The notes under the pieces were generated by a model. The model was not told the origin of the DNA, did no database searches, and was given only the letters and a program-made list of their open reading frames with translations. From Calditrichaceae bacterium (GTDB lineage: Bacteria > Calditrichota > Calditrichia > Calditrichales > JBFXGD01), in assembly GCA_050178385.1 (NCBI GenBank), contig JBFXGD010000070.1:1-15831 (forward strand): 15,831 nt of DNA, in the 5' to 3' direction. The translations under genes and the position numbers were made by a program. Of this stretch, positions 3,769 to 15,831 are shown piece after piece (positions within the stretch are counted from its first letter, which is position 1; the number at the start of each line of letters is the position of its first letter).

Positions 3769-5430
<1,662 letters not shown>

Positions 5431-11751: not shown

Positions 11752-11836
11752 GCCGGAGTGGTGGAATTGGTAGACGCGCTGGACTCAAAATCCAGTGAGG
11801 GTTGACCTCGTGTCGGTTCGAGCCCGACCTCCGGTA
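11752..11836 (+). tRNA. tRNA-Leu (anticodon CAA)
   Basis: Acceptor GCCGGAG/CTCCGGT, D arm GTGGAATTGGTAGACGC, anticodon arm CTGGA-CTCAAAA-TCCAG, long variable arm, T arm GTCGG-TTCGAGC-CCGAC, discriminator A; followed by CCG rather than CCA. Confidence 0.97.
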
Positions 11837-11847
11837 CCGGAAAGATT

Positions 11848-12310: not shown

Positions 12311-12373
12311 TTTTTCTAATATTAGAAAAAAATGTCTATATTTAGAAAACCTTTTCCAATATTAGAAAAAAAT
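12311..12373. repeat. Three palindromic units at 20-bp period (putative operators or recombinase accessory sites)
   Basis: TTTTTCTAATATTAGAAAAA (perfect palindrome, 12311-12330), AATGTCTATATTTAGAAAAC (12331-12350), CTTTTCCAATATTAGAAAAA (12351-12370). Confidence 0.85.
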
Positions 12374-12389
12374 CAGCCGCCTAATGGGC

Positions 12390-12409
12390 GGCTAATAACT
12401 ATGATAGGA
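12390..12409 (+). mobile_element. attI-like site at the head of the cassette array
   Basis: GGCTAAT-AACTAT-G/ATAGGA resembles the inverted L box, spacer and R core of attI sites (cf. attI1 CCCTAAA-ACAAA-G/TT). Identity with the downstream repeat copy starts exactly at this G. Confidence 0.5.
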
Positions 12410-12552
12410 CCGACCTAAACGGTCGGTCCTATCGTAGCGGCGGCTTTTCAATCCGCCTTCCCGGCCGCCCTTGGCGGCCTATCAGGCGAATCGAACCGAC
12501 AAGTCCTTTTGAGCGCAAGCGCTCAAGGCCTTGCGGCTCATCCGCCGCTACG
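12403..12552 (+). repeat. Gene-less, GC-rich multi-hairpin cassette, copy 1 (~149 bp), ending in an atypical attC (12477-12558)
   Basis: 123/126 identity with 15706-15831. Hairpins at 12403-12433, 12463-12479 and 12509-12526; 12434-12443 pairs with 12542-12551; R''-like GCCTATC, L'' AATCGAAC, L' GCTCATC, R' GTTAGAC. Confidence 0.85.
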
Positions 12553-12586
12553 TTAGACCGCTAAAAAAGTATTAGTGGAGGACTGA

Positions 12587-13117
12587 ATGCAAAAACCATC
12601 AGAAAAAGTATCAAAACACAAATCATTTTTCTTTACAATGCCTGGTGCGATAATATTGGCGGCTGTAATTACCGCTGTATTTGGGATAATTGGTGTAATG
12701 ATAGTACATGATAATCAGCCAATTATCGCTGTTCAACAAGAAGGTTCTCAACAAAGTCAGAATTCTATCTTATCACCAATTAATAATGAGATTGTGATAA
12801 ATCCAATACGTGTTGAAGGTACATTGTCATCATATTCCGAAGAATCTTTTTTCTGGTTAGCTGTTCAAGTTGGTAATCTACTTTGGCCAAAAGTGGAAAT
12901 AAGGTCTACCGAATTCGAATGGACAAAATATGTTAATGAAAGAGAACAACCAGGGAAAAGATTCGGCATAGTCCTAATCAGGATAGATACAGAAGGTCAA
13001 CGGATTGTTAAAAATTGGTTCCAGGAAGGTGATGCAAGTGGTCATTATCCTGGTTTTGAGATTGTCCCAAACAGTGAGACCTTAGATATTGTTAAAGTAA
13101 TGTTTGATGAGCAATAA
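12587..13117 (+). CDS. Hypothetical membrane-anchored protein (cassette 1)
   Basis: GGAGG RBS, one N-terminal hydrophobic helix, Q/S linker, beta-strand-rich C-terminal domain; fills the cassette. Confidence 0.8.
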   Translation: MQKPSEKVSKHKSFFFTMPGAIILAAVITAVFGIIGVMIVHDNQPIIAVQQEGSQQSQNSILSPINNEIVINPIRVEGTLSSYSEESFFWLAVQVGNLLWPKVEIRSTEFEWTKYVNEREQPGKRFGIVLIRIDTEGQRIVKNWFQEGDASGHYPGFEIVPNSETLDIVKVMFDEQ

Positions 13118-13140
13118 TGTAAATTATTCATTACAAAGCG

Positions 13141-13231
13141 GTCTAACCATGTGCTGCAGTGGACGCCTTCAGCTGTGGCATGAGCAATGTCATTGGTAAA
13201 ATCCGGCGCCACTGAGCACTGGCCGATAGCT
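13141..13231 (+). mobile_element. attC site of cassette 1
   Basis: R'' GTCTAAC, 5-nt spacer, L'' GCTGCAGT with one extrahelical base, L' ACTGAGC, 7-nt spacer, R' GATAGCT. Confidence 0.88.
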
Positions 13232-13246
13232 TTTGGGTAAAGTTTT

Positions 13247-14134
13247 ATGAATTTATATAAATACGTTGTAGCTGATAGATTTGATATTTTACAGAACAAA
13301 CAAATACGTTTTACTCAACCTACATCTTTTAATGATCCTTTCGAACTTCAACCCTTTTTGTCTTCTGTTGCAAGTCCTACGTATTTTTCAGATTTAATGA
13401 AATCTGATGGTTTTAAGAAAGATTATAATGAAAAATTATTAGAACTAATTGAAAAAAATCTTCCACAAAATATGCATACTTACAAAGACCAATTACTTAG
13501 TCTTGCAAGAGAAATAAACCTCGATAATTTTGTAACTCCCCTTTTAGATCAAATAAATCCGATTTTTAGATCAACAATGTTCGAAGGAATAAATAACTCA
13601 ATTGGAATATTAAGTTTATGTGAAAATCCAGACAGCTTATTAATGTGGGCTCACTATTCTAACTCACATACAGGCTTTGTTATTGAGTTTGATATGAACC
13701 ACAACTTTTTCTCCGAAAGACTATCTTCAGAAAATTCATTACATGGGCTAAAAAAAATAATTTATTGCCATAGTCGTCCTGCCCTCATATTGATGGACGA
13801 TGTCACAGAAGCTATCAAAACTGATGAAGGCAAATTTATCAATGATATCTTTTTTACTAAAAGTTCTGAATGGAAATATGAAAAAGAATGGAGAATGTTA
13901 AATCCATTAAAAGATGCTACTACAACATTTAACAATAACGGGGAAGATATTTTTTTATTTGATATTGAACCGAAATGTATAAAACGGATTATATTTGGTT
14001 GCAGAACTGAAGAGCCTACGGAAATCAAAATTAAAAAAATAATAAATGAATCGACTGAATTTTCGCATATAAAAACTTGTAAGTCGTTAATTGACCAAAA
14101 AGAATTTAAGTTAAATATAGTGGAAAAAAGCTAA
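13247..14134 (+). CDS. DUF2971-family protein (cassette 2)
   Basis: LYKY, FNDPFE, LLMWAHYSNSHTGFVIEFD, FTKSSEWKYEKEWR, IIFG motifs; the stop codon lies inside the attC R'' box. Confidence 0.87.
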   Translation: MNLYKYVVADRFDILQNKQIRFTQPTSFNDPFELQPFLSSVASPTYFSDLMKSDGFKKDYNEKLLELIEKNLPQNMHTYKDQLLSLAREINLDNFVTPLLDQINPIFRSTMFEGINNSIGILSLCENPDSLLMWAHYSNSHTGFVIEFDMNHNFFSERLSSENSLHGLKKIIYCHSRPALILMDDVTEAIKTDEGKFINDIFFTKSSEWKYEKEWRMLNPLKDATTTFNNNGEDIFLFDIEPKCIKRIIFGCRTEEPTEIKIKKIINESTEFSHIKTCKSLIDQKEFKLNIVEKS

Positions 14135-14224
14135 CACAAGGTTCAAGGTGAATTTGTTCGTCGGAGCATGATTCAGGGTTCGAGTAATTTACAATCGCAA
14201 ATCACCTTAACCTCATGGTTATAT
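14129..14224 (+). mobile_element. attC site of cassette 2
   Basis: R'' AGCTAAC, 5 nt, L'' GTTCAAGG (extra C, i.e. extrahelical G on the bottom strand), L' CCTTAAC, 6 nt, R' GTTATAT; fully canonical. Confidence 0.92.
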
Positions 14225-14291
14225 GGGTATTTGATAAACGATGAAAGTGTGCAGAAGATTATTGATCTGCGATACTAAAAGGAAAAGAATA

Positions 14292-15551
14292 ATGAAAAAA
14301 GAAAAGATATTTTTTTTGTTACTATTTTTTTTGTTGAGTTGTTTTAATTCACAAGCTCAACAAAGTGAAAAATTAGAACCTTATATAAATACTTTGAAAG
14401 AAAAAGGCGATGAACCAATTCATTTTATCCTTGATAAATTGGATAATTACGGTCTTATTCTTTTTGACGACGCATTACATACGGCTGTTGAACCTTTTGA
14501 ATTTTACCAGAATTTGATCAAAAATGTGGGTTTCCAAAAAAAGGTCAAATATATCTTTCTCGAGGCTATTTCTGTTAATGAGCAGCCTGCCCTGGATGCT
14601 TACTTTAATTCAGAAATCGATGATTTAAAGCTTTCGTATCCTGCCTTTCAAAACGATTTTAGCGGAACCGGTTGGCCCTACAAAACCTATTTTGATTTAC
14701 TACAAACCATTTGGAAAACAAATTCAACGCTACCGGTTCAAGATCGATTTAAGGTGGTTGCAGTGAATGCGCCCACTTATTGGAAAGAAATAGATACACA
14801 GAAAGATTTGGATTTATTCCGACTTTCACTTGTGGGAAATGATTATACAATGTACAAGATCATTCTTTCATATTTGGATAATTTTAAATCTGAGGAAAAA
14901 GGTATATTTTTAACCAATACACGCCATGCCTACAAGGGAATTAAAAACCAGGAAAATAAATATTACTGGAATTGTGGAACATTTTTTTACTTACACAATC
15001 AGGGAAAAACCTATTCTGTGCGTTTCCATAACATTAATTTAAGTTTCGAAGAGAAAAAAGAAGTGGATCCTAAAACTCCCAAAACCACAGAAGGGCTTGA
15101 AGATGTAATTGTCAAGTGGGTGCGGATGGAAAAAGGATTATGGGATAGTGCATTTGAAGCATTTGGAAATATGCCTAGTGCGTTTGATTTAAAAGGTACA
15201 CCATTTGGCAATACCGGATATATTGGTAACCACATGTTTAATGTGGCATCGGGTCAAACAATGTATGATGCTTACGACGCGCTGATTTTTTTAGCACCTG
15301 TTGAGAAACTTCACCAGACAGCTATGGTTGATTTCATATACACGGATGAATATAAACATGAGTTGGAAAGGCGGTCAAATTTTCTTTACAATGGAGAACA
15401 AATAAATAAAATTTTAACCGATAAAGGTTTAAAATCTTTAAGAGAATTTATAGATACCTATTTTATTTACAAGCCTGAAATATTGCAGCCACTGGCAAAA
15501 GAGATTGGTCCTATTGATGCATGGAAAACCAAAAATAATCAAAATCATTAA
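14292..15551 (+). CDS. Exported hypothetical protein, possibly EreA/ChaN-like fold (cassette 3)
   Basis: Signal peptide MKKEKIFFLLLFFLLSCFNSQA; LILFDDALH, YIFLE, NTRHA and C-terminal YDALIFL resemble EreA/ChaN-superfamily motifs. Start at 14292 with an AAGGA RBS; the ORF track gives 14241. Confidence 0.7.
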   Translation: MKKEKIFFLLLFFLLSCFNSQAQQSEKLEPYINTLKEKGDEPIHFILDKLDNYGLILFDDALHTAVEPFEFYQNLIKNVGFQKKVKYIFLEAISVNEQPALDAYFNSEIDDLKLSYPAFQNDFSGTGWPYKTYFDLLQTIWKTNSTLPVQDRFKVVAVNAPTYWKEIDTQKDLDLFRLSLVGNDYTMYKIILSYLDNFKSEEKGIFLTNTRHAYKGIKNQENKYYWNCGTFFYLHNQGKTYSVRFHNINLSFEEKKEVDPKTPKTTEGLEDVIVKWVRMEKGLWDSAFEAFGNMPSAFDLKGTPFGNTGYIGNHMFNVASGQTMYDAYDALIFLAPVEKLHQTAMVDFIYTDEYKHELERRSNFLYNGEQINKILTDKGLKSLREFIDTYFIYKPEILQPLAKEIGPIDAWKTKNNQNH

Positions 15552-15580
15552 TGCAAAGAGCAGTCTATGGTATGATTAAC

Positions 15581-15712
15581 AAATAACAATTGGCTGCACT
15601 TGAAGGCGAGGGCTATAAGATTTTAGGGAATTTGTAGATTTACTCATGTTTTGTTTGCTTCTTGAAGTTTTGTGCTAATCCATCCCGCCGCAAGTGAGCC
15701 ATACCGATAGGA
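15581..15712 (+). mobile_element. attC site of cassette 3
   Basis: R'' AAATAAC, 5 nt, L'' GCTGCACT, L' AGTGAGC, 6 nt, R' GATAGGA. Confidence 0.88.
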
Positions 15713-15831
15713 CCGACCTAAACGGTCGGCCCTATCGTAGCGGCGGCTTTTCAATCCGCCTTCCCGGCCGCCCTTGGCGGCCTATCAGGCGAATCGAACC
15801 GACAAGCCCTTTTGAGCGCAAACGCTCAAGG
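15706..15831 (+). repeat. Gene-less multi-hairpin cassette, copy 2 (truncated by the window end)
   Basis: Differs from 12403-12528 only at 15730, 15807 and 15822; starts exactly at the R' G of the preceding attC. Confidence 0.9.

Follow-up and report, generated by a model that had tools for sequence, protein, structure and literature searches.

Gene-less integron cassettes that occur in many copies have been described from Vibrio, where the idea that they are selfish elements was proposed (Boucher et al. 2006, PMC1382264), and in V. vulnificus CMCP6 such cassettes are reported to reach up to 45 copies per array. Since at least 2006 it has been asked whether cassettes without genes are selfish or of use (PMC1382264), and one gene-less cassette is reported to give an sRNA, sRNA-Xcc1 (PMC6557892). 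Copy-and-paste has been documented for ordinary cassettes (PMC8024014), as has one-step excision from single strands (PMC12614218). For the integrase IntI1, attC sites whose central spacer is paired and which lack extra bases are reported to recombine 8.5x10^4-fold worse, the loss being 27-fold when the paired spacer is the only change (PMC2727003); a 6-bp spacing between the extra bases is that for efficient recombination (PMC5027507), and GWT is accepted at genomic target sites (10.1101/2022.09.11.507474).

The window, i.e., the whole stretch of 15,831 nucleotides analysed here, is an entire contig carrying a cassette array that comes after a tRNA-Leu gene and begins with an empty unit of 149 bp. 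We propose, with moderate confidence, that this unit is a minimal gene-less integron cassette without any product, a selfish passenger of the integron that is multiplied by IntI copy-and-paste and imposes some cost on the array. The layout is as follows (a slash within a core marks the crossover; G and L numbers are our handles for genomes and loci, G000 being the genome of the window).

11752..11838, + strand: tRNA-Leu(CAA), adjoining the integron platform (same position in G001)
12311..12370, unstranded: palindromic repeats before attI, a platform remnant without intI (88% over 59 nt to repeats of G003)
12391..12409, + strand: attI core, crossover after G12403 (the homologous attI is followed by G/TT in G001 and by the unit in L074)
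12403..12551, + strand: empty cassette copy 1, 149 bp, first position, bounded by G/ cores
12552..13224, + strand: gene cassette 1, ORF 12587-13117 (176 aa), attC 13141-13225
13225..14217, + strand: gene cassette 2, DUF2971 ORF 13247-14134, attC 14129-14218
14218..15705, + strand: gene cassette 3, ORF 14241-15551 (436 aa), attC 15581-15706
15706..15831, + strand: empty cassette copy 2, immediately 3' of the attC of gene cassette 3, cut by the contig end

The original prediction had described a gene-less, GC-rich unit of ~149 bp at the array head that recurs 3303 bp further on, with identity starting at the core G in both places, and the alignment agrees. Copy 1 (62% GC; next core G at 12552) and the truncated copy 2 differ by 3 substitutions in 126 bp (unit positions 25, 102, and 117), and between them lie three gene cassettes with ordinary attC sites. 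The longest closed ORF of the unit has 29 codons in a frame that differs between copies, which vary by indels of 1 to 2 nt, and no conserved ORF was found across the copies compared. In run X1, a 3208-nt unitig extends from the end of copy 1 through the three cassettes and into copy 2; copy 2 is therefore real. A separate unitig in this run has two of the copy-2 alleles. Run X1 is possibly the source sample itself, so that its support is not independent, but the unitigs together with the relatives that carry the unit rule out the assembly artefact that the original prediction had named as a way to be wrong. Unitig depth mixes unit copy number with the signal of a co-occurring relative, and no circle or tandem junction was found among the joints listed from four contig sets, a form of data in which rare forms are lost. 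Since the contig ends within copy 2, no other contig of G000 has a unit or a unit 3' tail, and a strict attC scan of that genome found sites in the window only, the rest of the array is unassembled.

No integron integrase was found assembled in G000 or in the same-genus genome G001, the matches in G000 being XerC/D-like only. Genome G001 retains a small ORF that adjoins intI in other genomes of the class. This ORF (e.g., L026:2801-3151, minus strand) is present in 20 of 86 class genomes, often adjoining intI and preceding attI, and belongs to no NCBIfam family; it persists in G001 without intI, and the window has lost both. The G003 repeats matched by 12311-12370 lie between the intI-linked small ORF and attI, with weaker matches in 4 more of 11 loci. 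The repeated palindromic TTCTAATATTAGAA-type boxes of this segment are conserved before attI in platforms of the same type, and TTCTAATATTAGAA-type boxes are candidate accessory binding sites for IntI or for the small-ORF product. The attI L box (12391-12397) was placed by its expected spacing, and a 10-bp hairpin at 12372-12396, called as a minus-strand terminator and absent from the G001 attI, overlaps it. The ORF of gene cassette 1 matches no Pfam or NCBIfam family. Elsewhere in the window, calling ORFs of at least 50 aa placed no groES immediately before the groEL gene at 3769-5397, and a second groEL (77%) is present in G001:C12.

What the earlier reading overlooked is that the 3' half of the unit is itself an attC, masked by the 5' half. 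The unit is made up of a body of ~74 bp and a 76-bp attC, with the following elements.

12403..12433, - strand: hairpin 1, R' (GAT core) with outer R'' (ATC core), 13 bp, 5-nt loop
12434..12551, - strand: outer stem P1 (12434-12443 paired to 12542-12551), which closes a three-way junction
12447..12495, - strand: P2 arm with hairpin 2 (12463-12479)
12477..12552, + strand: embedded attC with G/TT at 12552 (from sequence and alignment)

Judged by sequence, the 3' half is an attC with an L box and extrahelical bases, and the 5' half mirrors the attC arms. The embedded attC runs from the inner R'' (12477-12483) through 5 nt to L'' (12489-12496, with the extra base C12492), then through a second extra base (A12499) and a terminal hairpin to L' (12536-12542), 9 nt, and G/TT. 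Its L''/L' box (12489-12499 with 12536-12542) has the extrahelical bases on the R'' arm, 6 bp apart in sequence type A; the second one is missing in most type-B copies. A gene-cassette attC in L083 has an L box like that of the unit. In the 5' half, hairpin 1 arises where R' closes on a second R'', and the two attC arms recur in inverted form and contribute to P1 and P2, with 12447-12458 being an inverted copy of the L'' arm that masks L''. Because the 5' half mirrors the attC arms in this way, the bottom strand folds flush from the first to the last base, with base 1 pairing with 31 and base 32 with 149.

The fold is very stable, with z values of -11 for the bottom strand as DNA and -12 for the top strand as RNA; all four stems named in the original prediction are present, and 0 of 200 shuffled sequences were equally stable. 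In hairpin 1, 171 of 180 pair cells over 15 copies are Watson-Crick, and in P1 98% of cells are paired, two pairs showing two-sided changes among 15 related rows and G016 and G018 adding further compensated variants. The R'' box is complementary to the unit's own R', GATAGG with CCTATC and GATAAG with CTTATC covarying (pair 5-27). The covariation test that had been suggested as a check yielded 47 two-sided cells versus 18.0 +/- 3.2 in shuffles, which overstate the contrast in these 15 related rows. The perfect 18-bp inverted repeat that the original prediction had seen across the circle junction is the outer stem plus hairpin 1, which in circular form run together into a single stem of 23 bp; this stem is free of mismatches in copy 1 only, because position 25 is C in copy 2 and in 6 of 7 aligned type-A copies.

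The lowest-energy fold is not that of a canonical attC. The conserved AAC and GTT triplets are absent, ATC and GAT standing in their place, and an unpaired central spacer of 5 to 6 nt per arm is absent from the preferred fold, in which P1 pairs the spacer. The spacer from L' to the core G is 9 nt in the unit versus 5 to 8 nt in 38 of 39 attC scanner calls, with one real 9-nt case recognized by eye. Ordinary attC sites in L025, L027, L028, L030, L086, and L088 often have 7 to 8 nt (once 9) from L' to the crossover rather than 6. The canonical fold through the inner R'' is predicted to be disfavoured by 13 to 25 kcal/mol in all 14 copies tested, and the L box is predicted to form by branch migration, P1 remaining paired, at a cost of 1.9 to 8.5 kcal/mol. 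The bottom-strand L stem, which we take to resemble domain V of an intron, was considered as such a domain and set aside, the attC L box explaining the likeness.

The original prediction had also offered a structured RNA or a transcriptional insulator for downstream cassettes. An RNA of this kind, or an effect on the transcription or mRNA stability of downstream cassettes like that of sRNA-Xcc1 or of promoter cassettes, would account for the strong RNA fold, the covariation above shuffles, and the conserved unpaired motifs. Other gene-less cassettes are reported to bear promoters or an sRNA (PMC11014356, PMC6557892), and first-position cassettes to shape downstream expression (PMC11511950). 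However, in all 15 copies compared, which are related to one another, the bottom strand folds more stably than the top strand (the Pc-sense one) under both RNA and DNA parameters, and wobble cells favour the bottom strand by 20 to 2, although these fall at distinct positions numbering just 4 versus 2. A consensus scan called no promoter-like site and no plus-strand terminator in the unit, no Rfam family reached threshold there, and the helices coincide with the att boxes. We therefore regard an RNA or transcriptional role as very unlikely.

To delimit the family, 86 genomes of the class and phylum were searched with BLAST, two covariance models, and sequence patterns, and metagenomes were searched by pattern, 13 of 16 hits being the unit and representing 11 distinct loci. 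By-eye tally gave 36 copies or relics, comprising 24 in 8 of the 86 genomes and 12 in metagenome contigs. All 36 lie in cassette arrays in array orientation, so that the original description of a non-autonomous element spreading through attI and attC cores has held up. Of the 24 intact 5' ends, 18 immediately follow a complete attC, 1 follows a truncated site, and 5 stand at attI or in a first position that resembles it; 23 of the 24 start with G/AT, as the check on a core G following attC or attI had anticipated, and the remaining one lacks the A. The 5' hairpin is missing in 12 cases, once because the contig ends there and 11 times through deletion or through fusion with the attC upstream, and the 3' end reads C G/TT in 32 of 36, with 2 cut by contig ends and 2 decayed. 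Pairs of empty and filled attI sites (G054 versus G052:C20; G001 versus L074) and similar pairs of attC sites place the insertion point at the integrase crossover and confirm that the head of the array is attI. The attI assignments are based on such pairs for G052:C20 and L074, on homology for the window, on an adjacent intI remnant for L079, and on appearance for L076. In G052:C20 the unit stands first behind a frameshifted intI (46596-47539), in L079 first behind a co-oriented 3' remnant of intI (1100-1293), and intI is missing or broken in G000, G001, G052, and L079.

The copy number per genome reaches seven in G052 (over three contigs), and six copies occur within 9 kb of G010, three full ones being 97 to 99% identical in a stretch where no gene cassette is repeated. 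No tandem copies were found among the 36. A recent duplication, as had been proposed, fits the two copies in the window, but the family itself is older, falling into three sequence types with ~69% identity between A and B. These types cut across host families (A in f1 and f3, C in f3 and f2, B in f6), and units of G000 and G010 share 88 to 90% identity versus 75% for groEL, the corresponding values for G000 and G052 being 69% and 73%. We read this mismatch as horizontal spread, with slower evolution under constraint as the alternative. All named genomes carrying the unit are Calditrichota. In a pattern search of named genomes for occurrence outside the phylum, 28 hits resolved into 20 chance matches (by their flanks) and 8 Calditrichota loci, with an exact pattern that can miss diverged relatives; 3 pattern hits in viral contigs included none matching the model, and plasmids and phages gave no match. 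In L083 (126-273, array orientation) the part between the P1 arms is inverted, the hairpin-1 loop keeping its usual direction; this single case may be a real inversion or a library chimera. Immediately 3' of the unit, L085 (1688-2292) and L025 (7840-8471) have two-gene cassettes in array orientation that by eye resemble toxin-antitoxin pairs.

These ends and contexts bear on whether the unit is instead a repeat of the REP or MITE kind whose movement depends on a different enzyme, such as a transposase, an IS110/IS1111 recombinase, or a group II intron. The GC-rich palindromes are of the kind expected for such repeats, and IS1111 elements that target attC exist. Group IIC introns that target attC are also on record (PMC3001079). 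On the other hand, G000 has just 2 copies, none of them intergenic outside the array; insertion occurs at both attI and attC, exactly at the crossover and without target duplication; and an Rfam search of the window returned only the tRNA near threshold and no group II intron. The scattered intergenic copies with variable ends that were to speak for an ordinary repeat family are absent among the 36, and the identity of the unit as a REP or MITE is largely refuted, leaving it a scarcely credible reading.

The unit is very probably an att-site-specific cassette, and we infer that it is excised and inserted by IntI. The comparisons indicate that it enters arrays at the integrase crossover, at attI or behind attC and always in array orientation, and that it multiplies within arrays and moves between families. 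They also point to three routes of decay, namely deletions inside the unit, fusion with the attC in front of it, and loss that is nearly precise. Going by what is known of integrons, IntI would excise the unit from the bottom strand, working in trans wherever the array has lost its own intI; the other daughter copy would stay whole and the circle would reinsert at attI, amounting to copy and paste, after which later cassettes would push the unit down the array. Up to 7 copies per genome, 88 to 90% identity across families, minis formed by deletion, and G/AT footprints are consistent with a selfish cassette. An I2-less recombinase was considered as the partner and set aside, as the intact integrases beside unit-bearing arrays (G016, G018, and G054) pass the TIGR02249 cut-off.

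Whether the flush fold itself aids mobility is a more tentative matter, which we consider somewhat less probable than not having such a role. In the model, bases 1-31 and 32-149 pair flush, and this would let the bottom strand of an integrated unit combine with the attC upstream to form the four-way junction of IntI strand exchange, which would favour excision; the excised circle would be a closed, almost wholly paired rod, in which the L box with its extra bases would form by branch migration while P1 stays paired. The main counter-evidence to the selfish-cassette reading as a whole is that a paired spacer without extra bases cripples recombination by IntI1 and that the predicted lowest-energy fold of the unit is of this poor kind, that there are no tandem copies, and that template switching alone, without selection, can produce compensated changes and keep the stems matched; in addition, no integrase is assembled in the unit's own genome.

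A rival reading is that the unit is a passive by-product, an accident of attC fold-back that moves at the rate of ordinary cassettes and drifts, its stems matched by template switching and its flush fold having no role in mobility. The 5' half does read as inverted attC arms, palindrome-perfecting changes are seen in L081 and copy 1, and the masked fold is expected to be a poor IntI substrate. Weakly folded gene-less cassettes also reach high copy (16 starts in 40 kb of G003 and several families in G049). However, hairpin 1 and P1 are flush with both crossover points in all three sequence types, the unpaired linkers TTTT, CTCAT, and CTATC are nearly invariant at ~69% overall identity, and among minis of 36 to 59 nt two retain exactly hairpin 1 and P1. 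A 93-nt variant in G010, which lacks the masking arms and is nearly reduced to an attC with a hairpin closing it, may be ancestral or a deletion product. On balance, a purely passive origin appears unlikely.

The unit may also affect its neighbours. Hairpin 1 is predicted to take R' of the upstream attC, whose R-box pairing probability is 0.83 to 0.97 at 6 sites without the unit but no higher than 0.009 at 6 unit-bearing sites of matching attC types (40 nt of downstream context), and pairing of the upstream R'' with the unit's own R' is at most 0.06 in 11 of 11 contexts. With a complete unit in place, an alternative partner for the upstream R'' is the G/TT beyond the unit, giving a predicted four-way junction of the R box, P1, hairpin 1, and the upstream L stem, which would be the geometry expected after one IntI strand exchange. 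In 11 contexts (L083 and G018 left out), the probability of this junction was 0.50 to 0.92 in 3 and weak or absent elsewhere; shuffled units gave means of 0.01 to 0.32, the unit being clearly above the shuffled mean in 4 of 11. Support for the junction is thus modest, being strong in 3 of 11 contexts and mixed against shuffles.

By taking the upstream R box, the unit could act as a domesticated lock that blocks lone excision of the upstream cassette and so stabilises useful cassettes or makes gene and unit move together. The predicted loss of upstream pairing points this way, as do 11 relics without the 5' part, mostly fused to a truncated upstream attC, and of 9 type-B units 7 follow a single attC type, versus 4 of 16 ordinary junctions (Fisher p = 0.017, for related loci and a partial control list). 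Yet five copies at attI have nothing upstream to lock, an IntI match is present in 45 of 86 genomes but the unit in only 8, older copies decay, and the composite fold may leave the upstream cassette excisable. We judge a locking function quite improbable.

Possible traces of loss were found as gene cassettes starting with G/AT within a family that starts with G/TT, at window position 13225 and at four sites in G052:C17. Gene cassette 2 of the window starts with G/AT though its own R'' ends in AAC, likely the footprint of a lost unit. One combination of attC type upstream and cassette downstream encloses a mini unit in G052:C27 and the T-to-A trace alone in G052:C17. Scanner calls gave GAT starts for 2 of 25 gene cassettes in unit-bearing arrays versus 0 of 84 in unit-free arrays (84 of 84 GTT; p = 0.051), a count from which three more from a motif search were kept apart and in which the G052 arrays also have other decayed cores. 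The G/AT starts look like traces of unit loss through slippage or a shifted crossover, and replication slippage fits the T-to-A footprints better than clean integrase excision.

A stronger form of the selfish-cassette proposal, possible but doubtful, is that the unit is a parasite of the integron integrase whose single-stranded circle would be a closed paired rod and whose integrated form would pre-fold with the neighbouring attC into a recombination intermediate. If so, it would outcopy gene cassettes, disable the upstream attC, take up attI, pass from family to family, and perhaps favour arrays that have lost intI, making it the integron counterpart of a MITE and one of the smallest mobile elements. 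If the unit does disable the upstream attC, this would be a new route for cassette arrays to freeze and decay. The selfish model is directly testable, as units this short can be synthesised and leave hardly any space to encode a product. With a symmetric junction stem and a fixed orientation, the unit is a natural test of whether excised cassettes stay single-stranded, and likewise of the tolerance of IntI for GAT cores and a paired spacer.

Compared with described systems, the unit behaves as a gene-less cassette in the features of membership that can be compared, lying in arrays whose cassettes end in attC and which are tied to an IntI platform (intI being missing at the locus in G000 and G001), and its site lacks two defining features of canonical attC. 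With canonical attC as characterized by Nivina et al. 2016 (PMC5027507) and Bouvier et al. 2009 (PMC2727003), it shares the order R''-5 nt-L''...L'-spacer-R', an extra base at L'' position 4 with a second 6 bp further on (type A), and a bottom-strand bias; it differs in that ATC replaces AAC, the right spacer measures 9 nt, there are two R''-like boxes, and the fold of lowest energy leaves no central spacer unpaired. As in the IntI1 copy-and-paste reported by Souque et al. 2021 (PMC8024014), a duplicate in the window sits at attI and the original stays downstream, but the duplicate in that report is a selected resistance gene, whereas the unit encodes nothing.

Like the Vibrio non-coding cassettes described in PMC1382264, the unit has no ORF, is restricted to a lineage, occurs in several copies per array, and is conserved between species. 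The Vibrio cassettes reported as tested by Blanco et al. 2024 are 491 to 666 bp and act as promoters (PMC11014356), in contrast to 149 bp and 62% GC here, and the unit has GAT and ATC for GTT and AAC and a whole body complementary to its own attC. The "empty" repeated cassette and sRNA-Xcc1 of Xanthomonas (10.1101/2025.06.18.660453, PMC6557892), compared by their descriptions rather than by size or structure, are also gene-less and can recur in one array; a promoter or sRNA has been proposed or shown for them, and the unit has no Rfam match. In the open papers, taken without supplements whose cassette tables could hold similar ones, we found no described equivalent of a 149-bp GAT/ATC cassette that masks its own attC. 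Multi-copy gene-less cassettes as such are known already.

Closer to hand, two unit-free genomes carry repeated gene-less cassettes of their own, so that multiplicity alone is ordinary in this class. In G003 (C1:4866000-4905999; L150, L161) a 370-bp cassette has 16 starts within 40 kb and is found both in tandem runs and first at attI, with a longest ORF of 36 codons, canonical GTT and AAC, and weak folding. In G049 (C1:2799100-2819099; L153) 39 attC calls fall within 20 kb, and related AT-rich cassettes of 320 to 375 bp with longest ORFs of 48 to 76 codons are repeated up to 8 times. These 320- to 370-bp cassettes share with the unit their phylum, their multiple copies, and (in G003) the first position. 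Unlike it, they do not match the unit models, have GTT and AAC cores, form tandem runs, belong to a class 2 to 4 times longer, and fold at -0.07 to -0.12 kcal/mol per base, compared with -0.40 for the unit.
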